DNA of 64,000 nt from assembly GCF_964204865.1 (NCBI RefSeq), contig NC_135259.1:7750001-7814000 (forward strand), written 5' to 3'. The notes below the pieces were generated by a model. That model searched no databases. It was not told the origin of the DNA and saw only the letters and a list, made by a program, of their open reading frames with translations. The translations under genes were made by a program, and so were the position numbers. Of this stretch, positions 37,605 to 61,600 are shown piece after piece. Source of the DNA: Styela clava (Eukaryota). Each line of letters opens with the position of its first letter. The stretch's first letter is position 1.

Positions 37605-38204
37605 CACTAGTGTCGAACTTTGGTAGGCAAGCTTGTGAAACTCAGCAATAACAAATTGTAGTGACTATCAGGAAAAGCAGAGGTGAAACTTGGACAGATT
37701 TGTGATATTACTAAATAAAACCGTTGACAGAATATTTGTTTCAACTTCCTTATTTAAAACCATGGTTTCCTTATTCACTTCCTGTAGCTCGGCTACCTTG
37801 TCTAAATTGTGACAACCAAATCTCTCTATAATTTTGCATAATTTTATAGACAACAGTCAGAAAACTTTTTTTCATACACATTTGAATACATCTTTAGTCG
37901 CGTTTGCATCCCGCACAAGCAGCGCGCGGATGCAAGCACTAATACATTCAGGATAGGGCGGAAATATATCTGCAAACGTTAGTTATTCAGTTACAATTTC
38001 CTAAACCTTGAAATTATTTTTTTTATATATATTTATATCCAGAAATATTTTTCAATTTTATTAGCGACTGAAGAGAGTATATTTCATAACTGTGTGTTAA
38101 AACACCTGAAGAAACACAGCAGGTTTAGCAATTCAACAAAACCGGACATATTAACTGTTCGACTTCTCAATACCTGGCAAAAAATATTTTATTGCCAATT
38201 CAGA

Positions 38205-39623
38205 ATGTCGGTCAATTCGACATGGCCGCTGGAGACTAATTCACGAGCATACGATGGTATCTCTAGCAACAGAATAAGAAGCCCGCTGAGTATAAGTGAG
38301 GACTTATTACCAATTTGGATACTCTGCGAATCAACTTCCTGCTGCCTAACTGCGATTTCTATCTACATTGCGGCAGTGTTGATAAAGCATGCGAGAAGTC
38401 AAAGCGTTTCAAGGTTGGCAAAGCGACAGAGAGACAGTATGATGTTTCCTTCTCAGGTTAAGTGTTCATCAAATGAAAATACCAATCAAAAACTCCCAGA
38501 CGTTTCAATCGGATCACAAAAAGATGACACGTTCAATCCAAATCCGGTAAAAATACCTTATAACGAACAAATTAGTGTTGAGAGTGCAAAAAGCAACAGC
38601 AACCTGATTGTTGGAAGTCCTGTTGGTGTGAAACCAGAATTTAATTTTACGCAAGGGCAGATTATAAGCGTTCATAGAAAAAAGGAAACTAATCAAGGAA
38701 AATGGCTCCTGCGAAGCATACTTGTGTGCGTCATTGCTGTCGTACTACGCTGCGTTACCGAACAGAGTCTTATACTTATGGGAAATTGGTCTGACCACGC
38801 TTGCGATATTTTAACCAAACTAATGATTACTTTCACTGCAGTGTCCCTTCATTGTTGTCACGTATTTTTATGGCTCAGGCAACTTACTTTCTACTCCAAT
38901 CCGGTGCTGAAACCCCTACAATCAAAGAAGCTAAAAGTTGTGAGCTATGCAGCTTATGGAATCATGCCAATTACTCTTGCCCTAACTCTCGCTTTATACA
39001 TGTGGTGGAGGGACTACAAAAACTACGAGGGATTTTGTGCAGCTTCAAAAAAACAAAACTTACCTTCGTACGTCCCGTTTTCAGTTCTAATTGCCTGCAC
39101 GGTCACTATTCAAGTCTTACTGTCATCACTATTTTTGTATCCGCTCATTGTCCATAAAATGAAAAGGCGAAATTCAGCAACTAAAGTGAAAGCAAGAGTC
39201 GACGATACTGCATCTGAATCTCGGGTCACTACAGCGCCAGTGGTGAAATCAAGAAGATCAGACAGACTGATGGAATGCATCAGGAGAGTTCTCCACGGCG
39301 CGACCGTTGGAATTACCACAGATGTAGTCGGAGGCGTGGTGTCTATATTTTTGCCAGATGACTTACCTATATTCGCTTTAAGCTTATTATACAACCTCAA
39401 TGTTTCATTGAATCTGCTATGTCTCATCTACACGTTTGCAAACTGGAGGCAGATGTTATTTCCTTGGTGTTGTCCGTCTCATCAACAAAAAGAATTTCGA
39501 AACTCCATACGCAACAGGCGTTCTTCTGCGCGACAAGGACGGCATAAGCACAGTCGTCGTCCTAGTCAAAGGTCAAATACTGTTATGGGAACCAAATACA
39601 CGTTAAAAGACGTTGGTACTTGA
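38205..39623 (+). CDS. Intronless orphan 7-transmembrane GPCR-like protein (472 aa from the first ATG)
   Basis: Seven hydrophobic segments, N-terminal NST sequon, Cys at the top of TM3 and in ECL2, basic Ser-rich tail. No DRY or NPxxY motif. Homologous to 57376-58641. The ATG at 38205 follows an acceptor-like TTCAG. Confidence 0.85.
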   Translation: MSVNSTWPLETNSRAYDGISSNRIRSPLSISEDLLPIWILCESTSCCLTAISIYIAAVLIKHARSQSVSRLAKRQRDSMMFPSQVKCSSNENTNQKLPDVSIGSQKDDTFNPNPVKIPYNEQISVESAKSNSNLIVGSPVGVKPEFNFTQGQIISVHRKKETNQGKWLLRSILVCVIAVVLRCVTEQSLILMGNWSDHACDILTKLMITFTAVSLHCCHVFLWLRQLTFYSNPVLKPLQSKKLKVVSYAAYGIMPITLALTLALYMWWRDYKNYEGFCAASKKQNLPSYVPFSVLIACTVTIQVLLSSLFLYPLIVHKMKRRNSATKVKARVDDTASESRVTTAPVVKSRRSDRLMECIRRVLHGATVGITTDVVGGVVSIFLPDDLPIFALSLLYNLNVSLNLLCLIYTFANWRQMLFPWCCPSHQQKEFRNSIRNRRSSARQGRHKHSRRPSQRSNTVMGTKYTLKDVGT

Positions 39624-41416
39624 TTATATATACACACCATGTATCAGAGGAATCTTTTTACTTATGCAATATGCATTATTCATCTATTTTTTTAATAATA
39701 AAGTTTGGTGTAATATATTGCTAGAGCGCGTAAAACTCTTTATGCTGAATAGTCTAGTTGCACTTCGGATTTCAATTTGCGTAATATAACATGGACTTTT
39801 CATCCGAATTGTGTTATCTGTATAGTATATTCTATTGATATGTTTAATTTTTACACTTTTATTTGAAATAAAAATGATTTTGAAACGAACTTGAAGGTTA
39901 GTTGATGTTCAAGCTTGTATTTTCTACCGCGTACTTTCTTGAATGTGGCAAAAAGCCATCACGTCACGCTTAAATTGAAAAGTTGCACAAAAGTTAAATT
40001 AATAATCAATTACGCTCTGTAGAATAGCTAGTGCGCTGAAAGTTCATAGACAATATAAATAAGAAGCAAAATCAAAGTTGTTTGTTCACAATAACACACA
40101 TAATGAGAGGTTTTGAATCAAGAATATTGTTTGATTTTCTTTGTTTTGTGGGAATATATAGAATCAATATCTGCTTAAATTTTGTTACGCCCTCCCTATT
40201 AGCTTGCGTTCGTAGATGACTCTTGGTAATTATAAGTTGTATATGAGAACTAAGGTTGTAAATAGGTGAAGAGATAGGTATTTTACCTAAAATGATATGG
40301 CGCAACTACGACTTAATAGTTGAACAGACATAGAGCAAATTGAACTTAAACCTATTATGATAGAAGCAAAAATATTCTCTTGCTAATCATGATGTGGTAC
40401 ATTTACGCTCCCTGAGTTGTGTTTTTATTCGAATCACGTTGTAAACGTCTCACCAACTGTAGTGTTTAGCTTACTGGTCAATGTCATGCATATATACGAA
40501 TGCATATTAGGGTTGACTCATTTCCAAGATCAAACTCCCAGACAATTTTTGATAATTTCAACGACCAAATTTTTGTGCTTTTAAAATCTTTTCAATCGAA
40601 AATAACTATTTATATCTGTCAATTTTTCCATTATTATGAAATACATGAAAATTAGTTAAAGAATCTCTCGGTCTTGGGGATAGTTTATAATTTTTACGAT
40701 TTTTGACACTTTACGAAAGCGTTTCACACAAAATATCGATTGTTACTGTTCGATATGTGTGTATTATACATAGGGGGAAATCGGTTGAAAATTACCGTGG
40801 AGCTAACTCAAGAAATGTGGTGCCTAGAATGTGACAAAAATGTCTTCAAAACTGATTCATTTTAATTCAAAAAAGAAAATATTAATGATAAATTGCGCCC
40901 TTTCGAAATACCATGATGGAAAAACATGGAAAAAATATAATTTTTTATATAAAAAGTACTCTACCGCGCATTATATGCGATTGCAACAAATCATGCACGT
41001 GGAGGAAATATTAGAAGATTCAATCAATCTAATGCTTAAAAACAGTTGTTACTGAATTGAATCCTCGTAAGAAAGTTGCTACCGTTTGTTATTGTCATTG
41101 TCGTCGGGGATAATCTGAAGATTTTTAAAAACCAAAGTAATTTTAGTATACATTCTATTTTTGAGTTACTGTTCACTAAATGCAATTTGAAAAAACCCAA
41201 CACTGCAAGCAAGTTGCTTCGTTCCAGTACTCAATTACCTCTGAATATAGTTTCAGTAACGCATTGCATTTGTATTTGAAGTTCTAGTCAAGTATTTATG
41301 TCGATTACAGCAAATCATGACTGCCCCTTCAAGCATAGAATAAAAATCTATCGGCTAAATATTTAACACTCCATCATTGGCATCAAATAATTCAATTTTG
41401 GCAAAAAAAAATTTGA

Positions 41417-41441
41417 ATATATATATATATATATATATATA
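41417..41441. repeat. (AT)n microsatellite
   Basis: About 12 AT units. Confidence 0.85.
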
Positions 41442-41912
41442 GTGTGAATATTGATGAAACGCTGAATTTATCAACATAAATTTTGATTAAGAAAAAAAAT
41501 TTGGCATAAAATAAAGTGAATTAGATTTACGTATTCATTTAACAACATAAAGTTTGTTCAACATTAAAAAATGATCGGAAATGTATTTTAATTTACGGCC
41601 ACCTGGAGTCATCACCTTAATCACCCATCAAGTTTCAACTATTCTTTGCTATTACGTGGCCTTATGGTATAGTACCTTTTCACATCAAATTGAATATAAA
41701 TAAGTTCAAATGTTCAAAAAATGCAGCATTGTTTGTATCGCGTATCATTCTGTAGTTATAAGTATAACTGAATTTCAAGTACATCGAATTTGAATGGACA
41801 TAACGCATCACTTCCTGACTCTTCTTCTCTTGGCATGTTTTTGTTCGTCTCGGCGTCGTGTAATATCCCTTTGCTATTTTGTGTATGTTTTATTTTATTT
41901 AGGCATGTCTGG

Positions 41913-44900
41913 TTACACAATGTTATTGTTTGTATCTTCTTTCTTCTTTTTTGGAGTTTGAATGTGAAATTGTTTTTGATTTACCGCCACTCGGACGAGT
42001 TTTTTTTTAGTTGTTTTGATTAATGTCGGCCTTGGTTCAGCATCATGATCATTTTCTTCTTCTTGTATTTTTCCTACGTTTCTCTGAATTATTTTTTAAC
42101 AAAATGAATATAAAAATAAACTAAATTCTAGCATGGAATCAAATTAAGCTTTGAATTACTTTGAAAATGTAAAATTTTGGATTGCAATACTAAATAAACG
42201 ATTGTATTTATTGCACCAATCTGCTGTTGTGTTTGAGGGTAACTGCTCGAGGTAAAAATGAATTATAAATTTTATTCTACATTGTGGCTTTAATATAAAA
42301 CCAGAAAATACTCTCATGTTATTATAACCTGAAACACTGGATCATGTGTGTCAATCATGTCCATGGGATTTTCTTCTCCGTTATTCACAGCTTTTTGAAC
42401 CTTTTCCATTAATTTTGCTATTCCTTCTGGCATTCCACTCTTCCCGTCGCGGTGAACAACCGGTGGTTTTGGCTTGCTCGGATGTTGCTTTGGAAAAGTA
42501 TATGTTTGATATTAGATAGATATTTATTTTTGACTTAACATTATGCTTGGAATTCATTTTTTCCATATAGAGAAGACACGACATATTTATATATATATAT
42601 AGGGGGAATGAGTGTGGTTTATGATGTATTAGGTATAGGAACAAAAACAAACAGATAGATTTTGCGCAAACGTAACGGCGCAATTCACAAATTAACAAAT
42701 AAATCGGAGTAAACCTAGGTTGGATACAATGCAGATGTTCCGAGGACATGAATTTTTTTTATGATTTTTCCTCGGGAATAAACATAAATATTTTTGTTCT
42801 TGTTTATATAACCTAACTAACCTACATTATAGAAAACAAAAACAGTTTTGAATAATAGTTATTTAAATTCAACCTTTAATTCAGCCATCTTGCGTTCATA
42901 TTCAGCTTGATTTTGCCTTTGTCTTCTGGCTTTTTCCTTCATTACTTCTTCGTGGCGTTGGGCCTTACTTCGAATCATATTTTCTGTCATCTTTTTCCTT
43001 GAAACGACAAAAAAAATATTTACTGAGCGGAACTTTGAAATCGCAAGAATAATTTAAAATAATATTTTTGTGTAGAATTGGCTAGGTTTGTCATCATGTC
43101 TTTTCCGAGAACTCAAGGCAAACGAGACAATAACTTGATTCCAGTCGTAAACTTTATACGAATCAACTAGTTTTTACTACAAGTCCGTGGACTACTCCTA
43201 TATATCAAGTAACGATATCTGTGATTCATTCATATTCAAGTTGTTTTTTTTGAGTTTCGAATCATGCTTTCTTAGTTTTCACGTGGTGGTAGTGGATGCC
43301 AATATTTCCTTTTCTATTATAAAATACAAATATATGTGTCTTACTTCCAATATACATCTCTTGTGCGAGCATCAACAACGGGATCTCCTGAAGTGACTTC
43401 AAACCACCAGTTCCATTGAAAGTATGGCTGTCTATATTTGTCAACAATTTTGCTTTCGACTGCATACGTTCCTGAGATAAAGATCGATTTTAAATATCAT
43501 AGCATAGCCTACCTATTATAATGTGTTATATTTTTTAAAAATAACTGTTTTTTACCGCAACTCAAATAGCGAGTATTTTATTTCTTGGTGATTTCGCGTG
43601 TCATATTTTTTCGCAAGTGATCATCGAAATATACCATCAACCGGTATGTTTACTGTAATATATAATTTACCTGGTATATTTGGAATTGCAAAATCAGGTG
43701 TTCGGAAGCTGTACTTCTTTGGAATGTCGGGATTTGAAAAATTTGGCGTTTTCTTCCCTGGCCAAGTGAACGTATAATGATCTAGAAAAATATCACATTT
43801 ATTACAATAAAGGGCGTAATGGATTTATTTTCAGGTAATTACATAAATTAGCATGCGATAATATTTGCCTATAAAATTATCTAAAAAGTGAAATATTAAA
43901 ATCGAAATCGTTAAATGTTTATGATTTGAAATGTTGGGAATAATATTATTAGGTTAAATATGGGACATGGTGTTCAATTATCTATTTAATGGTATGACGT
44001 AAATTTTTCTTTTGCTATCTCACTAAATGTGCATCCAGTGAGATGGGTTTTCACTCTTTATATCGTATTTCGTCTAATCTATGTTCAAAAAATATAACAA
44101 TGGGCTACTTACTTTCTCCTTTCTCAAGATGAGATTCGAAATGCTTTTCATCGGTGTAATATAGATATTCCGACGGGTTTAAGACGACCTGTTCGTAAAC
44201 AAAATATGAACATTTAATCAACATGCATTTATTGCATCATGATTTGAAAACGTCTGAAAGCGGTATCTGAGTGGAAAGTTGACAAGACGTAAGGCAAACA
44301 ATCATTTTTGTATGTAGTTATTTTTTAAATAACTATATTTGTGATTAATCACCCATAATTTACACTTTTGCAAGAAACCATCGAAGTGCTGACATTCAGA
44401 TGTGTGAATAAATTTGACTATAGATGGTATGTTTTCGTTTGGTTTGGACATTTCAGTGTCCACAAAAAAAAGAATTTGATGTTGGCATTACTACAAGAAA
44501 TACACGTCAAAACAATCATATAGGAAACAATTTAGTTTTAGTGCGTTGTAAAAAGTCTGCATTTGTTATCTGTTATAGTTAAGCATCTCTTACACGTGCA
44601 AATGCGTACGCGTAATAAATTGAATTAATTAGTGCACATTTGGGAGGGATATGTAAAAATCTGCAGAAAAAGTAACACAATTAAATCAGCACTTCATGAT
44701 AATTGTATTCGTTGTTAACATATTTTGCGATCTTTATAAAAATCATATCTAAAAGCCTTTACGCAAGATTTACACAAGACTGACTTGAGATTAAAAAACC
44801 AGATAAATCAACATATTTATATGGGGAACTTAAAAATCAAATACCTCTATATCAATCTTAAAAGCGAAGTAGTGTCTAAAATGATTTCCTTCGTTTTCAT

Positions 44901-47900
44901 TAACCCATTTGGTTATATCGGGAGGAATCGTTTGTTTCAGAGGTTTTGGCAAACTCTGGTGTGCTCCATAAAAACCAGGGCAGTATTTTACATATGCTGT
45001 TGTATTTTTAGCCAGCACTTCATTGAGTGTAGGGATTCTTTTAACACCGTCTTCTAAAACTTCACTTGGGTCTAAAACTAAACGCGTATCAGTTCCTATT
45101 TGGTGTTTGCCATCTTTATTTATTACAAAGTCTCCACTTGCAGCTTGTTTTCTCAATTTCATCCAACCAAGCCGCATATCATTTCCCAATGCACCCATCA
45201 GTCTAACGTTTGGACGGGACATAATTAGTCTGATAAGCTCTTTATCACTGTGCTTGGGTGGACCTTTTTTGCGTAACGTGTATTTGATCCCGTTTACTTC
45301 CTTTACGATTCCTCCACATAATGCTTGCATTTTGTCGCAAGCCGATTTCGCTGCCGTCAGGTTTGGGTATGAATAATCGGAGTCGTCAATTCGGTCGTGC
45401 TTCTCAAGGGTCTTGTTGATATATGTTTCCCATCGGCAACGACGGATGTCAATATCATCTGAACCACGTATATAACTTAAAAGTTATACTTTTTGTTATG
45501 CAATAGTAATTTCATACAATCACCCAAGCACCCGGAAAGTGTTAGTAGAAAAAATAGCGATGCGATGAAGGAGCACTCGACTACAAATCATGGCGGCGCG
45601 GGCGGTTTAATCTAATCTCTAAAAAAATTTATATTGATTAATGTTTTTGTATCGAAGCAAATATTTACTCACTTGAAAATGCAAGTCGAATGAATAGTGA
45701 TGTGGACAAGGTTTTGAAACATCTGTGCACATGAACGCTGACTTGTGCGGCCTGAACTGTGAAAATTCTCCCGGACAATATCGCAAGTATGCATACTTTT
45801 CAGGCAAGATGTATCGGCGTCGTTCAGCTGACAATCTTTCGTCTCCATTTTCGTCGGGGGATACTGTAGGAGGTTTTGGCGCGGACGGGCCACTTATAAC
45901 CAAGTGTCTAGGAATGCTACCCCTCCTTAAACTATAATTCTCTTGTTTGTTTTCACGTTGAACTCCTGAGCACTCAGGAACAAGTTTGTCGCACAGGTCT
46001 TGTGCTTGTTTGAGATCATGCAACATTGAAAACCGTCGTTTTCTACCATCTGGACCAATTAAATTATCTTTTATAAGTGAAGATTTGCCGTCTTTTCGGA
46101 CGGTACCAGGCCACAGTGAAATATTTTGCGCTTCCTTTTTCTCTGTTAATTCAATGACGAAGTCCAGATACTTCCCGGGAAATTTCTCATAACGACACGG
46201 TCCTGTGAGGGTAGGTATAATGGTAAAGTGGGGTTTGATCGGAAGGGAGAAAAGATAAGTAAAGCAAACAGTTAATGATAATAAATGATGATGACAATAA
46301 ATGATGCATTACAAACAATACAAGCTACGAAATTATAATGAACAACAAAATTGCAGAAGTAGAAACAAAGCAAAAGAGAAATGTGAGTGGTGGATTACGG
46401 TTATCCAGGATCGGGTGGGAACAACGCGTTTGATTTACCTTAAATCGAAGAATAGTATTACTAGCCGCGGAGAAACATCGACACCAAGGTACAATTTTAA
46501 GATGACAAATTTGGATAGTTTGAGTGGATGCATGCAAATTTAATAAATTTAGTGCATAAAAAAGAAGGTTAGTAATCAAATAAGAGTTTTGCGATTTCAT
46601 TTGGCGCAAAGCAAACGAAGATTTGTTAATGGAAGCAAACAGGGTGCAATTATGACGTAGGTTTCTGTTCAACCATGGGGTTTGGACGTCAAAATCCAAC
46701 GACCATGTCCCATGGCTGAATAAGACTATTCACATGCAGATTATATATTAAGACTTTCTCGCAATTGCAAATACATACCTGGATACAGGTCTATATCCAT
46801 TGATGCCCTGCCATCAATATACAGCGTCAGTTTTGTTACTTGAATTCGTCTGATGTCAATAATTAATTTTGTATACATTGGAAAACGTTTTACTTCAAGT
46901 AACCGATATTGCAAATCTGATAACCCGTCAATATCTGCTCTTGTTTTTCTTGTGAGGTTTAGTTTGAAACTAAAAATAATTAATAGTTAATCAGACAACA
47001 ATTAGGTATTTTTTTTAGTTCATTCAATGTTTCTATAAAACTGGCAAAAGGGTTTCTTGTTCATGAAATTGTCATCTGTTTTCAGAAAAATCTATGCAAT
47101 TGAAGTCATTCAAATTTAACTAATCATTAAGATTGAAATGTCTAGAATTTTTTTATCTCGACAGATAGCAAGTGTATACTTATCTGGTAAACTTAACTTA
47201 AAATCTTCAACAATTGATAATTGTATTTTAAATCTACGAACTCGTCGAGATAAAAATATCATCTAACTGTTAACATGTAGCCTCATTTTTATTTAGTCCC
47301 ATTTTGTTTCGTTTTTTGAGAGAATACACAAAAAGAATACTATGTTGTTTTTGCTTTGTCTGACTAGACCAGGGGTTCCCAAACAAGGGTCGCGACCCCA
47401 AAGTGGGTCGGAGTGATAAGTAGGTGGGGTCGCAAACAGGTCATGAGGTCGGTGGGGTCGCTGAGGTATGGTGGAGGATGAATGTACAAAACATCTAAGA
47501 TTTGATAAATCTTGTTAAATTTAGCAGCTTGTACCATGTCTTACTGTAAAACAGGCATATAGGCATCGCTCTATGCCTATGCTATAGAAAATGTAGGTGC
47601 TTATTGCGACATCACTGTTTGGTTTCAGCTTATTTTACCTAATATCACCACATGACCAAACTCAAAAGTCCAGTGAAAGAAGCTCCGAAGTTTCATGAAG
47701 AAATTATATATAGACCTGGGGTCGCACTGGACACTTGAAAGTTGTCTTTGGTGTCGTCCTGAAAAAAGCTTGGGAAACCCTGGACTAGACTAACATTAAA
47801 TAACGTCAGCAGAATTTTAATTACATTAATTATGCAAAACTTTTCTTACGGATATTTATTTGGACTAAATTTCCACGGATGTAAATGCGGAATCATCATG

Positions 47901-50900
47901 TATCTCCCCACTTTCAGCGAAGAAGGAACGATCGTCATATTCCTGCAAAACGGTAGATAGTTTTTTTAATCAATAGAGTGCATATTTATTAAAAGATTAG
48001 ACTTTACACAATCAATTGATATTAATTAAATATAAAAGTAATATAACTCTTACCTATGTTGTATTCTGAATTCCATGTCGTTATCTTCACCTCCCCAACC
48101 CCAGAATCGGTTAGAGTGCCCGTTTGCCTTACGATATTGTGATGGCGTAATTCCTGTGACTCCTCCAAATTCAGTTCCATAATGAGGTTTATACTGAAAT
48201 TTGTCGATTGCTGGGACGATAAGAATTTGTATTTAAATGTCGGTTTGTTTACTGCGAGATTCGCTATCTTTTTGGTAAGCAAGTACATAATAAAATGTAG
48301 AACATCGATTTATTATACTCAGTTTTTATCATAACAATCTGTGCTTCTTTACATGCAGATGGCAGCACTTTTAAACCATCCAAGAAAACTCGGTACAAAT
48401 CAAATGCGTGAAGGATTACATAAAATGTGTTTATATTATTTGATAATGCTCACCAGGAGAGAGATGCCGTGGTTGATCAGCACACATATAAAAGTTTCTA
48501 TCGTTTTCAGGAATCATATCAACATCATGGAAAATTATACAATCGTAATCATCCAACTTCAATGCTTCTTCGAAAGCAGCATTCATGACTGTAGCTTTGT
48601 TGAATTGACCGTTATCAAACTAAAATAATTAGAATTTAGGAATAAAACTGTTGTTGTTTGAAGATTGCCCCAAGCCTTTACGTTCAGTGAAAATTCATGC
48701 GACTTTTTTGATAAATTGCTTTTGATAAAAACGGCCTTCAATTGTTGTCTGCAGTAATAATATAATAAATGATTGAACCTATTATCTATTTATTAATTAA
48801 TGTTAAATACTGGAAAAGATAAATGACTTGAATAACCTTTTTTATTCGATTTGTGTGTAAAAGAGAAAATTACGTTGCAAAAGATTTCCTGGTAATAGCC
48901 CTTAGGGAAATAGATTTATTTGAAATTCTGTACAAACTCAGATAGTTAAATAACTCATAGCAATATCACCTACAAAAATGAGGAAGGGATTAAACAACTT
49001 TGTACTTACCTGCTCTGCTACGTATATGCAGTAATGGATATGTTGTCTCATCAACATAGGATGTAAGTGATACAATAACGTTTTAAGATGTGCATCTCTG
49101 TCCTTGAACGGAATTATAACTGCTACCTTTTGCCTTGAAGAAATTACATATACAAGTCAAAAAAAGTAAACATCAGGGGTCGGATAGTATACTTCCTGTC
49201 TTTTTGCTTATTACAATACTTACAAAGCTATACATTCTTTCGGTGAATAACACCCTCCAATTGATAAACCTGGTCCAACATGTTTTGCAACTTCTTCCAT
49301 CGAAGGTGTAATATTGGGATTGCTCTTCATGTCACCAACTAAAATGAAAAACATAGTAATATAAATATATAGTAAGAGTGACCATAACAAAGGATATGGA
49401 TTTCTTTGCAAGAATGAAAGGTGTCACAATCACCTTTTTATATCAGTTTAAATTTTTAGGTTTTTACAAGGATTTTTTAAAGAAAGGTAAATTCTTCAGA
49501 TTGTTTAATACACGTACAGATTGAATATGTGTGTAACATATTGTAAGTACGGTTTAATAGCGTCATTATATTCTTGTAAGCAGCTTGGGCTTAACTATAC
49601 TATTCCCAAAATAATTTTAAAAACATAGTTCTATAAATAGTTTCATAAAAAGTTGTAGCTTTCAAATATAATATATAAAGTCATATTTTTATCCACACAC
49701 TTGAAGAATAAATGATATACAGCTCATCCTTATCTCACCCAGCTTTGGCGATCGTTTTTTACATTTCTCCAGAGATTTTTGTGATATCTTATCTTTCTCT
49801 TTATTTTCGGCAACTGCTTCGATTTGTCGCGTTACATCTACTTTTTTAACAATTTCTTTTTTAACAATTGGGCTTGTCGCAAGAAGAATTGAAGTACTGG
49901 TGATTGAAGTAATTGGTGTTTGTTTTTGTTGTTCAAGCTCTTGTTGTTGTTGTTGCGGCTGCTCTACTTTCTCTGTTTGTTCTTCCTCAATATGTGCTCG
50001 TTTTTCAAGTTTTGGAGGTTCTGCTTCTAGTTGAGTTCTATTAAAAATGAAGGTGTGATTGACATTGATTTTAGTCAATAATGGACCATCGGTACCACAT
50101 AAACAAAAAAAATTGAACCCAATTTTGTTCAGTAATGCGTTCAACTGGGGCATTTAACATGCTGGGTGCGCCAAACTAAGTAAGTAAGCTATTCGGAGCA
50201 CAAGTGATTACGGTTCATCTAAGCATAATTGCTTGTTACATTTTCAAAAAGCCGGATCCATAAGAGTAAAATTTACAGTGCTTTCCTCATTATGAAACAC
50301 CAAGACAACAGCAGTTCAAATTTCACATTACCTGTAACCAATTTTTTGTATTGCTGTATTTTAGGTTAACGTTGATATAACTGATGACAGAATTTTTTTT
50401 TTCGAAATTGAATATCAACATAGATAACGCCATGGTATTCTTTGAGAAGAATCATGTTTGTATAGCTAAATTACAGTTAAAATAAAAGTACGAACGTGAA
50501 TTAATGAATATTTAATTTAATTCCAGGAAAATGGATATTCTTTGCTATCGATGTCTTAAAGTTAGACAAGTTGACATAGCCCCGGGCATCGCAAAAACTT
50601 TGGTATTTGAATAATTCAACAAAAATACGTAAACAAATCGTCTGTACTCTTACGTGTTATGATGAAATTCGTATTCATTTAATGAATAAATCTGAGTTCA
50701 TCAGTATTACATTAATTAGCATTTCAAACCTGATAAAAAATTCTCTTGGCATTGCCTTACACCAACAGGTAGTGCAAAATTTGGTATTTATCTATGGTTG
50801 GCTGCAAAACACATATGCTGTCAAATTCATTTTGTTTTATGCTCAGGGCCATTGCATAATTTTCAAAAATCGATGATGAGTTCGTGCATACCAAAAAACA

Positions 50901-51199
50901 TATTTTTAGCATCTGAAGAAAATTTGAATGTATATGAAAATCACCGAATGAGTATGTAGTATTTCTTTTCTTTATATCGTCATCAAAAAATTACCATTAT
51001 TTTCGTTTTTGTATGCGGGAGAATGCCTTTTCACTCACCTCACAGATTTTTTTTCCGTAATGTAAACGGTGCATGTGAATAAAAGTACAATGAAGATAAG
51101 AATATTGAGACTACGTTTTCTTCCCCCTAGTCTTAATGAACGTGGACACAACAGCAATGCATTTCTGGCGCTTCTGCTTATTCTCTGTAGCAACGTCAT
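41913..51199 (-). CDS. GT7-family beta-1,4-galactosyltransferase-like type II membrane protein with long C-terminal extension; two predicted isoforms (~867 and ~895 aa)
   Basis: Exons (minus): 51199-51039 (cytoplasmic tail and TM), 50037-49739 (Q/E-rich stem), 49338-49224, 49133-49010 (KVAVIIPFKDR), 48619-48454 (FNKA...FHDVD), 48210-48054 (FGGV, WGWGGEDND), 47942-47850 (GRYMMIPH), 46969-46779 (DGLSDLQY...YTKLIIDI), then either 46202-45673 or 45458-44845, then 44188-44113, 43781-43671, 43471-43345, 42997-42874, 42487-42329, 42083-41913. All junction phases are compatible; the last three exons are less certain. Confidence 0.88.
44845..45458 (-). CDS. GT7 gene alternative exon 9b: PAN/apple-like 4-Cys module, variant B
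   Basis: TTCAG acceptor (phase 1), GAG|GTATTT donor (phase 0); RCRWETY...AKSACDKMQALCGGI...YTLRKKG...AYVKYCPG...HYFAFKIDIE. Confidence 0.8.
45673..46202 (-). CDS. GT7 gene alternative exon 9a: PAN/apple-like 4-Cys module, variant A
   Basis: CTCACAG acceptor (phase 1), GTGAGT donor (phase 0); PCRYEKF...AQDLCDKLVPECSGV...YSLRRG...AYLRYCPG...HYSFDLHFQ. Confidence 0.8.
47370..47782. mobile_element. hAT-type MITE in a GT7 gene intron
   Basis: TIRs CAGGGGTTCCCAAAC / GCTTGGGAAACCCTG; GGGGTCGC subterminal repeats; perfect 8-bp TSD GACTAGAC at 47362-47369 and 47783-47790. Confidence 0.9.
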
Positions 51200-54100
51200 C
51201 TTCTTCAAATAGGGATTTTTTAGTTTATGGAATGTCAACAATTTGTTCGTAAAATTCAAGATTTTCCTATATATTTCATACCGAAGTTTAGATGTTGTTA
51301 GTAGTTACTAGAATGAAAGAATTTGTTTTTTGTTAAAATGTTATACTTTGAACATTCTATGAGATTATACGTGAAATAACTTTCATTCCGGTATGTAAGA
51401 AACTAGACAATCAAATTAGCCTGTCCATATTTGATTTTTAGGTCCCAGTACTCGCAGTTAAATATGAAAGCTTCATATCTATATCTCATTACTCATAATA
51501 CTGTTCACTATACGAATACACGCTTTTCTGAAAAATTACTGCCTATATGAAGTTATCCCTGCTCGTGATAGTAGAGCATATATTTGCTTTAACTATCTTT
51601 CAAATCTTGTCAACTACATAAATGATTTTCTATACCAACTTCCAGCACACAGTATATTTTCTAATACCTATTCACCTAATCGTTTTGCATATGTGCTCTT
51701 TAGTTGCAAGAAGACATACATCTGTATTTTTGTTCCCGTTTTTGATGCAGTAAAGGCAGTTTTGGTACTTTAGTTTCTATTATGTTCTGTCTTAAAACCA
51801 CTCATGCAATTGAGTATATTTCTGAATAATTCATAAAGCGAGCACTGTAATCAAAATTTCTAATCGGTACATTTTGTCGCAAGTTCTTAACCCTCAGAAT
51901 AGACATTCAATTATCACAGAAAAATAGTTTTCCAGATTTCTATCGCGCGGTGTTGCTTCTGCGTCGAACCCCTCAGGGTGTTATAATATAACGAACGTGT
52001 ATCATATTATTAATAAATATGCCCCGCAGCTATACTGGACCGATAACCTGATCGGCAAGCTTCCGTGATATTATATTGAAAAGCAACAATTTTACGACCA
52101 TTTTCGTGTAACAACAATATGTTTCAAAGTTTTTATTTTGGAAAATTCTATCTAAACTCAACGTCAAATAACTATTTTGAAATTCGGAACTCACTTGACA
52201 ATTCCATCGGCGCACTTGGTGCTGAAATGTATGTATAAGCTATAAAATAACTTACATTGAAATTGGTGTACATTACTTTTGTCAGCGTACGTTGAAACAA
52301 GTAAATACTCACAAAAGCCTAGTTAAATAAAGTATGAAATGATTTATTCCAATATTCCCACGTTAAACCAATTTATTTGCCTCACACATGATTCTATGCC
52401 AAAGACAACCTGGCAACTGAATGTCAATTCAGGATTTTTTACAGTATGTTTTTATCTGGAATAATTTGTAATAAGATCCGTCAGGGGCCTCGTTCTGTAT
52501 TTACCTTCATATAAAAACAAGACTATCTTAAGGTTTTAGAAGTGAGAACGAAGTGATATTAAAAATTGGCGTATTTAATCTTGCTTACATCTACAAATGC
52601 ACCAAAAACGTTGGTAATCGCGTTGTTGAAACAAAACATCTGATTACGACACCAAAGAAGTTGATATGAAATGAATAATATATACTATTTCAAATAATAA
52701 CAAAAATCAGCTATTCGATTTTGCCTATTTTTGCCATCGTACAATTCAATCTTTGCTTGCTTTTGGAATATTACTCTCCCGTTTTAATCGTTGTCTTCGC
52801 TTATCTATAGTGTTTAATTAGTATATCTACGGTACTGCCTATTTCTAAAGTTTGTCAATTGCATAATGAAAATTTGAGATTTTATCAAAAAGTTTCTCTC
52901 CTATAAAACGGTAGTCAAACTGCATATAAATAATTGATGAGAAATGAAATAGTTGTTTTAAAATGTCTGAATATCGAACACATATAGCGATTGCATCGAA
53001 TTGTCGAACGAGAAATTACTGCAGTCGTTTGGGCCAGATAACAAACATAATTCTGTATTTTCTTATATATGTCTAGGCCCCATTATCTATACCAAAAATG
53101 TTTTGGTACAAATAAATAAAAACGGATTGAATATATATTGTGATATTTTAATAGATGGATTATCTTTATTTAGCATAACAAACAACAATCAACAAATAAA
53201 GTTTAATTGCAGACATATAAACGACAACAATGTATACCGAAAGAGTTTAATCCAAATTATAAAATCTTAAAATTTAACGTTTTGGGTAGTAAAGCTTGAT
53301 AGGCGCAATTTCATAAATTATTCGTATAAACAATGATAACATGCGACTAATCCAGCCAACTACATTTCTTAATTAAAAGCACATTTTGATTTTTGATTAT
53401 TCTTAATTTATTCACTCCATGCAAAAGTCAAGCTAACCAAATTTCTGCATTAGAACAACTAGCACAGACGAAATTCAAATGTTCTTTGCATTCAACTATC
53501 GCATTGAAATGAAACATCTAACAAAATGAGAAAATATATTTCTATAGCTGAGCCCTCAGGTCGCCGATACGCACACATATAAACACGTAGTCAAAGGTTT
53601 AGAATAATTTATGTAAAATTTGTCGTGGTTAAAAATAAGAGTCAATGTGCTTCAGTTTGTTAGCAATTCTCAACAAAATAAGGCTTAACAGTCATAACGC
53701 TGTTGTATGAACGAGCAAGTCTATTTGTTGAATATTGCCTAGCCTCTCTTCCAATGAGGTAGTTTTCTTCATTAGTCAGTTTTTTAACGTTGCCAAAAAC
53801 AATGGAATTATAAATTTATTAATTTAAAGACAAGAACGGAAGGGCACCATACAGCTACAACAATCCAAATGCGATACAGAATTGCATCAGTATATATCTA
53901 AAAAAAATCTTTTTTTAACTAATCTACTGCAACTGCAGGCAAGTTCTATTCTGATTTGAGAGAACAACATTTTCAACTATCTCTGAAGCATACACAACTG
54001 TACAACCTATGCAGAACTAGACTTCAAAATGAATAGTAAATTCTAGCTTATTGGACACGTGAGTGGACCTATGGATCGTTTCAGTATTAATGGTGTTTGT

Positions 54101-54335
54101 TAGATTTGACCTCGCGCGCCTCACACTTTTGACCCTTAATATTTCTCTATTATCTTAACAATGCCCGACAAATTATGTTCTATCTTTATTATCTTAATTT
54201 CCTGTTGACAGTGACTCATTATTGTGCCACGGTAAATAAAACTTTTTCCCCGGGTTTTAAGATAACGCTTTTCTGATTCTTTGTTCTATACGACACTGCG
54301 GAATTGTGGAAAGTGTCGTTTAATATTGAGATTTG

Positions 54336-54445
54336 GGTAGATCTGAAGTATGCGCACCAAGATGTCGCACAACCTGAACCCTAACCTGGTACACAAACTG
54401 AGTTCAGGTTGTGCGCCATCTTGGTGCGCATACTTCAGGAGGTCC
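54336..54445. mobile_element. 110-bp hairpin MITE related to the 20531 family
   Basis: CTGAAGTATGCGCACCAAGATG.CGCACAACCTGAAC is mirrored almost perfectly; the loop contains CCCTAACCTGGTACAC; GG...CC ends; perfect 8-bp TSD GAGATTTG at 54328-54335 and 54446-54453. Confidence 0.88.
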
Positions 54446-55026
54446 GAGATTTGCCCTGGATTTAGTTAATCATAAGGGTGCGCGTTTCGTGAAATCTGCC
54501 ATATAAATTTAGCTTAATTAGGTCCTATTTAGTATTGGCGATTATTTCTTGTTATTGTGAATGGTATATTATCATTATTTCATTGCTTATTTATAGTGCA
54601 TCCGTGTCGTTATAAATTAGTTTTATCGTTGGTCTTCAAGTTTCTGTGCTGTAGCAACCCTTTACTCATATGTGGAGAATGATGAATACAGTTTGTTTTC
54701 TAAGGATCTCGTTGCCTCTTTACTACTTTGGTTGTGCAGTTACTAGAAGCTGGGAGATTGCGCATAATTCTTCAAAACGGATGCGGGTGAAAATACAGAA
54801 ATAGGACTCAACTACAACAACGTTGAATGGATTGGAATTCACGTTCCAACTTCACAGTGTTGTTGATGTTCTTCTTCTTGTTCTTCTTTGTCAAAGAAAA
54901 ACGCTTTTCTCTTTTCGCTTTTTAAAATTTTCAGTGCTTGGAGATTAAATTTTTCGCTAGAAGGCTAATACTTTTATTTATTTTAAATATTCCAGTGAGC
55001 TGCATATTATTCGTTTTTTGTGTGCT

Positions 55027-55061
55027 ATGACGTCATCCGAATTTGCCACTAGGTGGCGCTA
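55027..55061. promoter_or_regulatory. Palindromic CRE (ATGACGTCAT) next to a near-consensus CTCF motif (GCCACTAGGTGGCGCTA)
   Basis: CRE at 55027-55036 and CTCF-like motif at 55045-55061, between the GT7 gene 5' end and the 3' end of the second 7TM gene. Confidence 0.55.
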
Positions 55062-57375
55062 CGTATATATTTTATTTTCTCCGAACTTGAAGCAATGCTT
55101 TTGCGTCGTCTGGTGTCGCTAGTGGTTACTCTTGCGAGGTTGTTTTAATGATAGCCAGTTGCGTTCTGAACACCTCGCTGCAAATAGCTTGGTATTGGTG
55201 GTGAATTTATATATCATTGAAATTAGTAGTTGGATTAATATTTGGCTTATATACGATTGTAAGCTGGTTCAGCTTTATGAAGGGTTATGTATTTTCATGA
55301 ACCTCAAGCAAGAATGAATCGTGGGAAGATCAAAAAGCCACACCCATCAGAACTTCGTCTCCAACTTTTTCTCAAAATCGCAGTTAAATACTCACAATTA
55401 GCGTTTAATCTAATGGTTAAACATGAAAGTATTTTATTACATACTCATTCCAATACGTGGCTAAATAATATTACTTTTCGAAAACTGTCCTTCATCGTGT
55501 GAAATTTCCGATTTGGGATTCTTTTTTTTGAAAGGGCGATGGGTATACGAGTTTGTAACTAAAGGGTTTTTTACGTTTTATAGAGGGAGCTTTCAAACAA
55601 GAAAAAAATTTTCAAACAATTTCCCTTTTCAGAATTTGGGTATTTCAGACGTGCTATGATCCTAATGCAATCAGTAAATACCTTTTTTAAGATGCAAAAC
55701 AGAAATGCAATTTTCTGCGGTTGCACTTGGCCCAAAATCGAAAAGAAAAATTTGCATCGAGGAAAAATGACAAATTCTTATTCTAAGTGTTGCATAAAAA
55801 TTGAAAGATCTCATCGAATGATGCAGATAACTAACTTCTCTTAGATAAAACAATCTTTTAATCGAAATTATCCGCAACAATGTGGATAAATCTTCAATTT
55901 AGGCTTGCTATGCTGAATGCTTTTTATATTTCTAACCCCGTATTGTTGTTTCATTTTATAACTAATACCACACCCGACTACGAAAACTTGACCTGATCAA
56001 CTACCCTGATACTTCATTTGGTGTAAAATCTAAGTCAATCATGTCATACAGCGATACTTATCTTATTTTAATGAGAAAATTATTCACTTATGAGAAATTT
56101 TTACCTAAGTGGGAATAACTATAAACCTGACCCTAAAGAGGTGGAGGTCAAAATTAAATAAAACCAATAATGACGACACAGACACAGAATTTTATTTAAG
56201 TATTCAAAAATAGGAAAAATAAAATACAATACTCAATACTGTTCAATACACTGATGAAACTTTATTGTTTGTATTAATTTAAGATAGGTTACGATTACAT
56301 GTGGAATAGTTGCAAAACAAGGAACGACACACAGAGACATACCGGAAGCAAGAAAATTCTGAACTTAACAAAACTTGAAATAATGTCATTATTTAATTAA
56401 CATAGCTTTATTGAAAACAATGATAGGATGAGAGAAAAAAACAAAATGGCAACGTTTTGCTAATAAACTGTTGACATAAAAATAATCACAGAATATACAC
56501 CAGACAACATAACGAAAAAATTCGAAGTAAATAATAAATTGAAGTCAATGCTCAGTCATGAATGCAGAGAAATATATTGCAGCAATTACAAATAATACGA
56601 TTTTTTTTTACACACACTATGAAGGCCTATAATAATTTTTAAGTCGACATGGTTTCAAATAATTACATATTGCAACAATTGTTTTTTTTTATTTTAATAA
56701 TTATTATTAAATTTTTAATTTTTTTTTTATTATTTTTTATCGGATCGGAATCCTCTGCCGACGGTAAGCTATAAGCATAAATTTAAACCTAGTTTCACAA
56801 TATTTTTAAATGTGTGTTTGTGTATATCGTGAATTGAATAGAATAAATAAACAAATGTTATTTTCACAATTTAAAAAAGTATATTTCCAATTTTTTCAAA
56901 ATCACATGACTGGATGACGTAATATTTCCGACGATTAGTTCTTGTGATACTGCAATGATTATTTTAAAGTTACATTAACAGTAAAAGGGAATGTTTTCAT
57001 TCAAATATATTTTGGTTCTATTTCTTCATTCTACATCAAAACAACAACCTAACTAAACAATGTTGATTGACAGATAAAAAATTTTCACAAAAATTTCTTT
57101 TCACTGACGAAAATAATTCTCCTGTAAACATTCACGAAATGACACATCTCAATATAAATGTTAATTTTTTTAAAATAAATTGAAAAAAAAAGAACGGAGG
57201 TCAAACCTCTGAAAATTGGATTATATTTAATTTGCCACTTAGTTGTTTTGAACAAACTCGGGTTGACTCCCAAATAAAGCAATCGCACCTGTAATATATC
57301 GATTTTTCAAATCAATAGCTGTCTAAGAAAAGCGTTCATTACGGTTGTTTTGATCAAGATTTTCGATATTTGATA

Positions 57376-58641
57376 TCACTTATCTTGAGTTGACAAACGA
57401 ACCGTCGAATTTTGTGCTTGTGGAATGTCGTCAGCAGTAACACAAAACGGAAACATAATTTGTGTCCAGGTTTGGTAGGTCCCAATAATACAAATTACGT
57501 TAATGAGTAAATTAAAGTCAGTAGAAACGGCTACTAAAATAACTGGCACGCCCTTGCTTACTACACCATATACAGCAACTAGCGTCATATCCGTAATAAT
57601 ACATATAGCAGTCAGCAGTATCGTACGTCTTATTGACTTAAGGGCTTTTTCTGACAGAGATCGTTCAGAGGTTGTAGCTTCATGGCGTCTCCCAATCGCT
57701 ATCTTGCTGCCCTCACTCTGAGGTTTTACGGAATTAGTGTCTTCAGGAAAAGATGGGGGCTTTGCTACCGTGTTTGGTACATTGCAGGTAATGCTAATTT
57801 CAGTTTGCTTTCCTGACGCGTAGCCCCTTTTGCATTTCCATTTTTGTAGCTTATCCCATGCAACTGGATAAATAAAAAGTGTCATCAACACTACTTGGAA
57901 GAAGGCATTTAATGCCGCGTAACATATAAGAGGCCATCGCTGTTCTTCATCACTCATATCATACAAAGCGACACATCCAACATAATTGTCATTATTTGAT
58001 ACCGTGTTGATACCATGAGCTAGTGTGGATTTGTTAATTCCGTATCGATGTGGTATCCAATTTGCGGCTGCACAAAGTACGCCAAGAATGAGCATCGCAA
58101 CAACAAACAATTTGTTGAAAATGACTAATCTCCGACTGTACAGAAACTTGACAGTGATGGGATCGCAGTAGAATAACCACTGTTTTATCCACAAGAATCC
58201 ATATACCCCAAAATAGGCGAACGCGTATATTGTAACATCCGTGATATCATATACCAATTCACAGATGTCATCTGAATTGGCATTCCAGGCATAGAAAAAC
58301 TTGAGTTGATCTGCCAAACATTTTATTAAAGTCGCAACCGCCGCAAATAAGCAGAAAATTCTCATGAACATTCGAAAATGCCTTCTTTTAGATGAAACAC
58401 TGGCTCTCCTCCCTCTTGGTATTGATTGTTGATCCTTTGTGTTTCCAAATCTGTTTTTGCAACTTGACCACAGCAACCAAGAAAGGCAAATGGAAATGTA
58501 GATCAACATCGCGGTCATGATGCACAGCACCACTTGGCAACAATACCACATGATATTTCCATCGTATAATTTTCCATTATGTATGTTCTGTACCGTGTCA
58601 TTTTTGTTCGGAATTGATACATTTCGTGTAATTAATTTCAT
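57376..58641 (-). CDS. Intronless orphan 7-transmembrane GPCR-like protein (421 aa), paralog of 38205-39623
   Basis: Seven hydrophobic segments, N-terminal sequons (NVS, NDT), TM3 and ECL2 cysteines; shares FLW.[RK]Q..FY..P, QV.L..LF.YP, ITD/TTD and W.Q..FP motifs with the other 7TM ORF. Confidence 0.88.
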   Translation of the reverse strand: MKLITRNVSIPNKNDTVQNIHNGKLYDGNIMWYCCQVVLCIMTAMLIYISICLSWLLWSSCKNRFGNTKDQQSIPRGRRASVSSKRRHFRMFMRIFCLFAAVATLIKCLADQLKFFYAWNANSDDICELVYDITDVTIYAFAYFGVYGFLWIKQWLFYCDPITVKFLYSRRLVIFNKLFVVAMLILGVLCAAANWIPHRYGINKSTLAHGINTVSNNDNYVGCVALYDMSDEEQRWPLICYAALNAFFQVVLMTLFIYPVAWDKLQKWKCKRGYASGKQTEISITCNVPNTVAKPPSFPEDTNSVKPQSEGSKIAIGRRHEATTSERSLSEKALKSIRRTILLTAICIITDMTLVAVYGVVSKGVPVILVAVSTDFNLLINVICIIGTYQTWTQIMFPFCVTADDIPQAQNSTVRLSTQDK

Positions 58642-61600
58642 TTTATTTAAATAAAGTAATAAAACGACTTACAGTCTGTTAAATTAAAAAATAGTATTCA
58701 TTGTGCGATATTTCTAACATACCAAAAACAAAAGAGCAAAGAAATGAAAATTACAGGTTGAATGAATAAGCCAATAGACCTCAATCACCAAAGCATATGT
58801 AGTACATCTTCTGCACGCTGCCTCATCGACAAATGGAATCTACACACTGTTCACTCTATTTAATCTATTGCTTAAATTGTTAGTCATGTTGAATCCGTGA
58901 AACACAATTTTAAAATAACAGTCTTTTAAACAAATTAAACCACTTTAATACCAAGACAGACGTTATGGTTCAATAAAAAATGGCGAGATTAGAATTCGTA
59001 ATCGTGTTGCAAGCTCGAAATATTAATTTCGTTTTATACGTTCCAATGCAGTAATCAAATTAATTCTGTTTCGCCACAGTCTGCTATTCATTGCCTCGTG
59101 CCTGTAACTGATAATGAATATGCATGTAAGCTACAGCTTTTTTCATCTGTTGTGAAGCTAGTTCACATATTTAAAAAAAAAAATATATATTATCAGAACC
59201 AAAAATGGTAAGAACTTGGGTTTATACTCGCTCTTAGTTGATAAAACTATCAGAAGTTTATAAACCCGTCAGGATCATTTTCCAACACACAATTCCATTC
59301 GGTATGATTTCGATTAAATTGTAAAACAAAGTTAGAAGAATAAGCTACATTGGTTCTCTACTCCAGTACAAATGAAAACACCAAATACGCTACATTATAT
59401 GTGTGATAGAAATTTAGTTTAAACATCAATGCACGTTTTCACACAATCGACAATAGTTCCAATAATGAACACAAGAGAAAGTTATTTGTGGAACTACGTT
59501 CAACTATACGGAGTGCGAGTTTATACAATATAAATTCCAAACCATTAAAAAATTTCAACTAACTTATTATTTTAAATTAAAATTCTTTTGAGCTACCTTT
59601 GTTCATTAAGAAAAAACCTAACAGCTATGTAAACCACTTAAATGCTAGCGCAGCAAAACCAAAATCAATGAAAATATGTTACGAATGGGTATTTATGTTG
59701 AAATTTATGTGAATATTTCTTTCCAACAACTGATGCGTTTACAAAACTAAGTACCGATGACGCATGATGTATATCGATAATTTGAATAAGCCCCGAAAGT
59801 GGAAAGACTAGCGTTGTTATTCCTAAGTAACAAGAATGCGACAGTTAAAGCAATCTTGTGGTGTGCTGCTATACAACGAATTTATAATCATCATGATATC
59901 GCAAAGAGCATTATGTATATATTATTTGGTTACGCTTGAAACAGCAATTTTTTATAGAATATGAATGCACAAAAGCTAACATTTGTTCGTTTTTCATGCG
60001 CTCTAAATGCTAATATATCTTATTTTCTATGTATACCTGTCTGTTCTTTCTACCAATTAACCGCGATACAAATTTCTTCAACAAATACGTTACTCTAATC
60101 TCGGTGACTTTTACCAAAGATAGACGCATTAGGATTTATGATCTCCTCTTAAGAATAACGAAATTTTTAAACTGAAGACTATTTTTTGTTTTGTTCACTG
60201 AGTAACGAGACAGTTTGAACATTACTGATTATTTTTAACCTACATCGGTAACGCGATTATAGCTCGCAATATGGTTTTCCCGACATGTTCTTGCTAATCA
60301 ATGCGCAACATTTTGAAGTATCTTCTTCCAATGACGCATACATAACAACACATGAGTAAATCTTTTCTTCTTTGATCAATGAGTAAGAATGAACATAAAC
60401 TTACAAAGTCAGGAAATGGAACAAATCGAAGACTCCTTATTCAAATTGTCAAAGTGGGAGCGTAATATTTTTGACGTGATTATTATAACGTCATGCTAGG
60501 TATATATATATAAATCGCACCCGCACCTGGTGCTCAACGCAGCGGAAGCACAATTTATGAAATGGGTTCAAAGGTCATATCATAAAAAGGGCCTAAACTT
60601 TGACAAGATGAACGGTTACTAGCGTTCATCGGTACTACCCACTATTGGATTCGCGGGTGAAATTGCTCAAAAATATTGTGTTACGCAAGCCATTTACACA
60701 CTTATATTTTATTTAACAAGAACTAAACTGAATGCGCTTTGCAAAAATTCCAAAATGACCGGAAATTGTTCTAAATCGCCTGAGGAAATTGTAATCTGAC
60801 GCAAGTATCGGTGGATTCATTCGCTATAAAACTCAGAGATAATTAACTAACTAGATCTTGTGGCATACAATATTTACAGCATATTTTCAAAATTGAAAAC
60901 CATTTTCTTGTGTATGGTCGGAATAGATTTGTTCTTAGAAACACACGTGATAAAAAGTAGTAAATAACGTTATTTTGACAGATTGGTGAAAATTACTCGC
61001 TATACTCTTCAGAAATGGCATCGAATAGGTTGGAATACAAATTGTCTGGACGGCTCATTTCTATAAATAAATTTACGTTTGACCAATGAACATTTAACAA
61101 TGTAGATATATATTTTCGACGTAGTTTTTAGCTCTCTAAGCGCCATCTTGGTACGAATACTTCGGGAGCACTGAATATTGAATATTATGAGTATAGTCTT
61201 CAATTAAAAAAAAAATAATGTTAACGCACTCTAGAGTCTAGACTAGAGCACAAAACAATGTCATGTTAAATTTACCGGCATTCATTGAACTCAGCCCATT
61301 CTGCTTAACGATTGAAATTTAGCAAACAAATTTCAATAGTAATGTCAACATTCTATATTAGGTTTCTGATGATGCAATATACAAATGACTAGAAAATGCT
61401 GTCACTGAAACTATCTCTTTTCATGACTCATCTTAACGTCCTTTTTTATTTATATATGACCCTAAGGAATTTTGTGCAAATGGAAATGAAATCGATGGAA
61501 AGGAAATGTAAATCACTGACGACATTGTTTCTGTTGTCTGCGTTTAGTGTGACATTTCATGAATATCATTCTTTGTATAAGAATACCATTGGCCTGTTCA

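Follow-up and report, generated by a model that had tools for sequence, protein, structure and literature searches.

Two single-exon genes of Styela clava as members of a large tunicate seven-transmembrane family with a predicted GPCR-like fold

A stretch of 64,000 nucleotides from the ascidian Styela clava (NCBI RefSeq assembly GCF_964204865.1, contig NC_135259.1, positions 7,750,001 to 7,814,000 of the forward strand; hereafter the window) carries two open reading frames (ORFs) for seven-transmembrane (7TM) proteins, ORF1 (P0001; 38205-39623, plus strand, 472 amino acids) and ORF2 (P0002; 57376-58641, minus strand, 421 amino acids). Judged from their sequences, both almost certainly belong to the tunicate 7TM family of the Ciona gene KH.C3.516, in two different subfamilies. 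This family has been noticed before and has been little studied. The accessible passages of Johnson, Razy-Krajka and Stolfi (2020; PMC7397655) describe it as a tunicate-specific 7TM family of Ciona robusta and report no BLAST matches outside tunicates; in those passages KH.C3.516 is specific to the axial columnar cells of the papilla and enriched at their exposed tips, and its fusion to green fluorescent protein (KH.C3.516::GFP) lies at the apical surface. The same passages propose that KH.C3.516-type proteins may be chemosensory receptors, so that a chemosensory role is a hypothesis already in print, and name a neurotransmitter ligand as the alternative. Neither a per-genome count, a fold, a class assignment nor a motif map is found in the text passages of that paper. 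What is new here is the size of the family, its predicted G-protein-coupled receptor (GPCR) fold with a retained R3.50, the conservation of its cytoplasmic side, and its deep subfamily structure.

Homology of the two proteins was evident from BLASTP (23% identity over 319 columns, E 5e-18), and comparison with Ciona placed them in the published family. A profile that includes both ORFs matched the Ciona protein XP_002128857.4 (P0039) at E 7.7e-72, and P0039 is near-identical to KH.L25.4 in the accessible part of the PMC7397655 supplement. The KH sequences were compared by eye, and KH.C3.516 itself was not among the retrieved proteins. By the same comparison, all 12 Ciona sequences of that supplement show W.R[QL] together with other family motifs, the family members P0102 and L007 resemble KH.C5.48, and ORF1 and ORF2 fall in subfamilies other than that of KH.C3.516. 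A sequence-only reading of this DNA had proposed that the pair defines a new family; the likeness of P0039 to KH.L25.4 identifies it instead as one already published.

Genome searches with each protein gave 43 and 99 matches, and these 142 merge to at least 100 loci on 15 contigs of the Styela clava genome, a lower bound with 99 of 180 and 90 of 255 candidates scored and with a merging rule of our own. An open frame of at least 300 amino acids is present at 91 of the 100 loci, and 53 have another locus of the family less than 25 kb away. An intron interrupts intracellular loop (ICL) 3 in some members (L004/L020, L012/L009 and L007), and some are recent tandem duplicates with 92-99% identity. 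A hidden Markov model (HMM) built from 24 sequences matched 1,283 representatives of clusters at 50% identity at E<=0.001, including 571 at E<=1e-30; the best 150 of the 1,283 were listed. Thirty of the matches were looked up and 14 carried a species name, all of them ascidian (Styela, Ciona, Clavelina, Phallusia). In the Atlas, the commonest taxon of the nearest clusters was Chordata, and the nearest cluster bears the automatic name "Serpentine receptor class gamma", which is a label only. The earlier expectation of a tunicate-expanded 7TM family with non-canonical motifs and a GPCR-like fold is supported by the locus count and by the AlphaFold2 models described below. Large, partly clustered, mostly single-exon and variable in its pocket, the family shows the pattern of a chemosensory repertoire.

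Known domain models scarcely recognize this family. Pfam gave no match on either ORF and no recurring 7TM family on sets of 24 and 122 members, a single 7tm_2 match at E 0.019 being recorded. Neither ORF matched a PDB entry by sequence. A word-based search with the 150-sequence alignment returned nine proteins only and did not extend the range. Atlas feature matches to fungal DUF7703 at 0.84-0.85 were set aside as lying under the bar of the tool.

Both genes are single-exon and transcribed. Unspliced contigs from sequencing runs cover nearly all of each ORF: a contig of run X1 (1,594 bases) spans 38161-39754 over ORF1, and contigs of X2 (57050-58577) and X7 (57050-58677) cover ORF2, all without a splice joint. 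The runs carry no RNA record (none of those holding ORF1 is recorded as RNA), and their RNA nature was judged from splice joints. X5, X6 and X7 show CT..AC joints in the neighbouring gene and little or no cover in most flanking bins, and X7 contains both ORFs together with the spliced neighbour, while the cover of X10 is flat and DNA-like. The transcription data carry no tissue labels. P0002 clusters with the RefSeq Styela clava "uncharacterized protein LOC120337322" at 99.8% identity. The two genes had been read as intronless, convergent and about 18 kb apart, and this stands, with 17,752 bases between their stop codons. At the 5' side of ORF2 (58642-58677, minus strand), the match of the X7 contig begins at an AG that follows a T-rich tract, 34 bases before the ATG, and 13 unmatched letters precede it, a hint of a spliced 5' exon or a trans-spliced leader.

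Regarding sequence motifs, class A residue numbering is applied throughout, and the counts refer to 150 sequences chosen by the family profile. Two cysteines are invariant (150/150 each), C200 of ORF1 at the top of transmembrane helix (TM) 3, the C3.25 position (38802-38804, plus strand), and C278 in extracellular loop 2 (ECL2; 39036-39038, plus strand), its predicted disulfide partner. At the cytoplasmic end of TM3, ORF1 carries LWLRQ (residues 222-226; 38868-38882, plus strand) and ORF2 carries FLWIKQ (149-154; 58180-58197, minus strand), with one extra residue in the TM3 of ORF2. The position of R225 is Arg or Lys in all 150 sequences, W223 is kept in 147 and Q226 in 144. This basic residue (R225 in ORF1, K153 in ORF2) follows the TM3 cysteine by 25 residues in 141 of the 150 sequences (26 in the other nine), which is the place of the class A DRY arginine (R3.50), so that it is kept and not replaced; the idea that WxRQ simply takes the place of DRY is therefore not supported. 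When the family profile was aligned globally to 18 class A receptors from the Styela clava genome, all helices came into register; R225 falls on the DRY arginine without a gap, D373 lies at CWxP, N403 pairs with N7.49 and W414 with the Phe that opens helix 8 (F8.50), and Y312 lies about one turn after Y5.58. High conservation was also found for Q303 (141/150), L309 (148/150), P313 (147/150), D373 (142/150) and N403 (131/150), the spacing from N403 to W414 is 11 residues in 150/150, and 91/150 have a Cys within 14 residues of W414. An N-terminal sequon is present in 137/150 and ICL1-3 are basic; from these features, an inverted Or/Gr-like topology was judged unlikely, and no Or/Gr-like channel appears in the listed fold-search rows, an absence that does not decide the matter.

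The motifs first written for TM2, TM3, TM5, TM6 and TM7 match both proteins exactly. That for TM1 was off by one residue, the correct form being W..C....C..TA..IYI; neither the Cys nor the TA residues of this motif belong to the positions conserved across the family. Across the whole family, mean conservation is higher in the cytoplasmic than in the extracellular halves of the helices (0.425 versus 0.334, 91 positions each, p 0.004), a pattern seen where receptors for many ligands share a transducer.

Predicted structures support a 7TM GPCR fold for both proteins and leave several classes tied. The AlphaFold2 model of ORF1 (predicted local distance difference test, pLDDT, 78.5; predicted template modelling score, pTM, 0.76) contains seven long helices, a two-strand ECL2 hairpin, a short helix at 414-418 and a long, low-confidence ICL1 (~89-155). 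That of ORF2 (pLDDT 74.1, pTM 0.75) has the same number of long helices and a two-strand ECL2, and TM7 is again followed by a short helix, the predicted helix 8. The rows that Foldseek listed for the two models are GPCRs without exception and almost all of class A, with weak best E values of 2.3e-3 and 5.9e-4, the latter to the beta1-adrenoceptor. VIA-align against 48,161 chains gave Z 14-17 to GPCR-fold chains for both. The ORF1 model scored highest with two designed GPCR-like folds (Z 17.4 and 16.7), followed by TAS2R14 (16.5), P2Y1 (15.9), AdipoR2 (15.9), GABA-B (15.7) and a microbial rhodopsin (15.6); the ORF2 model scored with Ste2 (16.4), TMEM87A (16.0) and TAS2R14 (15.8). The Atlas structure search returned mostly 7tm_1 clusters at template modelling scores of ~0.5-0.6, all under the bar for naming, and two Clavelina members in UniRef bear the automatic label "G-protein coupled receptors family 1 profile". 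The fold is GPCR-like in these models, and structure does not settle the class.

Several results weigh against a derivation from class A and against a purely sensory role. In VIA-align, GPCRs of classes A, C, D and T come out level with GOST proteins and microbial rhodopsins, at root mean square deviations (rmsd) of 3.4-5 A. The class A set of this genome is not picked up by the family HMM (best E 0.043), the 25 commonest weak Pfam matches of the 122 members include no 7TM family, and the family profile finds no significant PDB sequence; its rhodopsin rows (E 0.12) were rejected, TM1-2 being aligned out of register on TM5-6. The alignment of the class A profile is weak (hhalign global probability 14.8, E 4e-4; local 5.4, E 0.007), and selection of the 150 sequences by the family profile inflates motif conservation. 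D3.49, D2.50, CWxP, P7.50 and Y7.53 are absent, as is an aromatic residue at 3.51; anywhere in the sequence, CWxP occurs in 1 of 156 proteins and [ND]PxxY in 3 of 156, N7.49 alone being kept. As for a sensory role, KH.L141.50, also a published member, is a marker of cell cluster 3 (37% versus 1.4% of cells). The leading markers of this cluster, A1CF, FABP, FOLR1 and TMEM27, look endodermal to us. Since one Ciona member marks this endoderm-like cluster, the family is probably not purely sensory.

The pair itself had been taken for a cluster of fast-diverging paralogues, and phylogenetic analysis speaks otherwise. In a FastTree tree of 164 sequences (10 near-duplicates left out) and a quick IQ-TREE tree of 42 (support by SH-like approximate likelihood ratio test, SH-aLRT, alone), P0001 and P0002 form part of two separate, fully supported clades. 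The ORF2 clade contains Ciona, Phallusia and Clavelina proteins and the wider ORF1 clade contains Ciona and Clavelina proteins, the corresponding Ciona genes being LOC100177146 for the former and LOC144744577 for the latter; relatives of ORF1 in other datasets share 45-52% identity. On these trees, both subfamilies thus were already present in the ancestor that Styela shares with Ciona and Clavelina. Membership in a known family with one-to-one orthologues, which the sequence-only reading had named as grounds for giving up its proposal, was found in part, within ascidians. The closest paralogue of ORF2 among the scored candidates is L002 on contig C14 (41%), which adjoins L007 there, and the L002/L007 pair matches the Clavelina proteins P0041 and P0102, which have consecutive accessions and locus numbers. 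Because of this match, the C14 tandem would be the old arrangement and ORF2 a relocated duplicate. A recent tandem duplication of ORF1 and ORF2 was rejected from the trees and the C14 synteny. Between the two genes lies an unrelated gene of glycosyltransferase family 7 (B4GALT-like; 41453-51256, minus strand, 15 exons, ~867 amino acids), and the two receptors therefore are not a tandem array; ORF1 and ORF2 are the only two members that the family HMM finds in the window. With separate old subfamilies, the glycosyltransferase gene between and the tandem partner of the ORF2 subfamily on another contig, their adjacency is likely accidental.

The explanation that we favour with fair confidence is that ORF1 and ORF2 are GPCRs, probably derived from class A, that take a small ligand in a variable pocket and signal through a conserved face. 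Its parts differ in strength, by our judgement: coupling to G proteins is likely; a class A origin is favoured modestly; and environmental chemosensing by these two receptors is possible, falling somewhat short of an even chance. In the proposed mechanism, the ligand would enter the variable extracellular pocket under ECL2, which would be tied to TM3 via C200-C278. The change would be relayed by polar residues peculiar to the family that form a core (R182, Y219, Q303, D373 close to the CWxP position, D/N397, N399 and N403), and G-alpha would bind to a conserved cytoplasmic face composed of W223-x-R225-Q226, Y230/P233, L309-F-x-Y-P313, R361 and W414-R415 of helix 8. The genome offers a Gq-like gene as a candidate partner, along with several divergent G-alpha genes of a single exon each, and a canonical G-alpha-i is recorded for the species. 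It is plausible that the family as a whole is a chemoreceptor repertoire. ORF1 and ORF2 belong to slowly changing subfamilies, and for that reason each likely detects one long-standing cue, external or internal.

An internal cue is the substance of the most serious rival, a quite conceivable one in our estimate, in which these GPCRs respond to tunicate-specific peptides, lipids or metabolites and are not environmental chemosensors. The age of both subfamilies, reaching back to the Styela/Ciona/Clavelina ancestor, fits it, as do the expression of KH.L141.50 in the endoderm-like cluster, the prevalence of peptide receptors among the nearest Foldseek rows and the neurotransmitter alternative named in the accessible passages of PMC7397655. 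In the seven-member clade of ORF1, moreover, the extracellular halves of the helices are on a par with the cytoplasmic halves in conservation (0.76 versus 0.79, p 0.39). Against it stand at least 100 genes, with recent tandem duplicates at 92-99% identity, which exceed the usual need of an endocrine repertoire, and the position of KH.C3.516 on the exposed papilla tip, as given in those passages. For ORF1 and ORF2 themselves, internal signalling is compatible with the favoured explanation.

The other two rivals concern the nature of the protein, and both appear improbable. A separate GPCR lineage nearer to the vertebrate TAS2R and V1R receptors than to canonical class A, forming their tunicate counterpart, is suggested by TAS2R14, which ranks first among natural chains with the ORF1 model (rmsd 4.0, 260 aligned) and takes third place with that of ORF2, and by the mostly single-exon genes and large repertoire. 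TAS2R and V1R receptors generally end TM5 in L.RH, and in the family a histidine (H317) follows LFxYPL in 85/150. The Z values are tied with those of unrelated 7TM folds, however, and Foldseek favours class A; the Pfam models of TAS2R (PF05296) and V1R (PF03402) matched no known family locus among the 6 and 5 candidates scored in the genome, gave three weak matches with stops, and are not among the Pfam matches of family members. Moreover, the TM3-ECL2 cysteines and R3.50, which are not known from TAS2Rs, are present in the family. A GPCR fold that works without G-protein signalling, as a trafficking chaperone like TMEM87/GOST or as a scavenger, would account for the loss of most class A microswitches, and TMEM87A and AdipoR2 do score like true GPCRs (Z 15-16). 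Such a role sits poorly with the invariant basic 3.50, the conserved cytoplasmic face and helix 8, the N-terminal sequons, the large variable repertoire and the apical localisation of KH.C3.516::GFP in the accessible passages of PMC7397655.

Other features of the window and genome were recorded alongside. The glycosyltransferase gene has 14 CT..AC splice joints in run contigs, one open frame and the Pfam domains Glyco_transf_7N and 7C; a C-terminal tail of ~400 amino acids extends past the catalytic domain, with a weak Rho_GDI-like match in one exon (E 5e-4). Elsewhere in the window are a single-exon MaoC-like dehydratase ORF (2693-3205, plus strand, 170 amino acids, E 5e-18), which we take to be HTD2-like, a seemingly intact ORF with a MULE transposase domain (30942-31970, plus strand, E 8.6e-10) and a 154-residue repetitive-sequence ORF (29520-29984, minus strand) that is probably read-through of a tandem repeat. 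Short high-copy elements lie at ~33001-33700, 47400-47780, 54350-54450 and 61140, visible in the runs as depth spikes with many loose ends. In the genome, a second and separate expansion of single-exon class A orphan receptors was observed (L036, L039, L041-L045, L048, L050, L053, L055 and L057-L060, on contigs C1, C2, C6, C8, C13 and C14), with the shared motifs YK.S..AD, FDR and SNSLWN.FIY; it is another candidate chemoreceptor set. Six single-exon G-alpha genes (L064-L069, on contigs C9, C17 and C1) comprise two Gi-like genes with unusual C-termini and tunicate-wide relatives and four whose P-loop and switch motifs are strongly degenerate. They are reminiscent of the divergent G-alpha-i genes that Ciona has; according to the accessible part of PMC12176390, the Ciona papillae employ divergent G-alpha-i, Gq and Gs at metamorphosis, and not all of the upstream receptors have been identified.

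Ascidian larvae and adults respond to chemicals. According to a review (PMC7776563) and a preprint (10.1101/2022.08.15.492342), in their accessible parts, genome surveys have turned up neither olfactory receptor nor vomeronasal receptor orthologues in ascidians, and there is no established function for the divergent 7TM genes; nor does the literature give an identity for the receptor through which the settling larva detects taurine. Apart from PMC7397655, a literature search, mainly outside subscription papers, turned up brief mentions and no study devoted to the family; one such mention is PMC10962819, where KH.C3.516 serves purely as a marker in the accessible passages. Against a published Ciona survey of 169 GPCRs in total, at least 100 GPCR-fold genes unseen by Pfam in one genome would substantially enlarge the tunicate receptor repertoire. 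The family is a concrete candidate for the open question of ascidian chemoreceptors. A bolder reading, which we offer tentatively, is that it is the missing chemoreceptor repertoire of tunicates, numbering over 100 genes in each genome and forming its own group of GPCRs, missed by Pfam-based surveys, that could be the counterpart of TAS2R/V1R and could couple to divergent G-alpha-i. Such a group would have kept R3.50 and the cysteine pair and rebuilt its activation switch (WxRQ, Q..LFxYP and the TM6 Asp). The family provides a defined gene list for screening, and the motif map names residues for mutation in coupling work. For ORF1 and ORF2 the claim is modest: they are two further members, not a defining pair.

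Compared with known systems, the family resembles class A GPCRs (PF00001) in C3.25 and the ECL2 cysteine, the basic 3.50, the ICL2 proline, N7.45/N7.49, the aromatic-basic start of helix 8 with a downstream cysteine, and the top Foldseek rows. It differs from them in having no PF00001 match, N1.50, D2.50, D/E3.49, CWxP or NPxxY, and in its own W3.48, Q3.51, TM5 Q..L..LFxYP and TM6 Asp. With TAS2R (class T) and V1R receptors it shares mostly single-exon, expanded genes, degenerate microswitches and, for TAS2R14, a place among the top structural neighbours, whereas it is without their Pfam match, keeps the cysteine pair and R3.50, and scores no closer to them than to the tied folds. The repertoires of vertebrate olfactory and nematode serpentine receptors are built alike, from numerous single-exon 7TM genes, some dispersed and some clustered, whose products vary in the pocket; no model of those families matches here recurrently, and the subfamilies of the tunicate family, in contrast, are old and conserved across ascidian orders.

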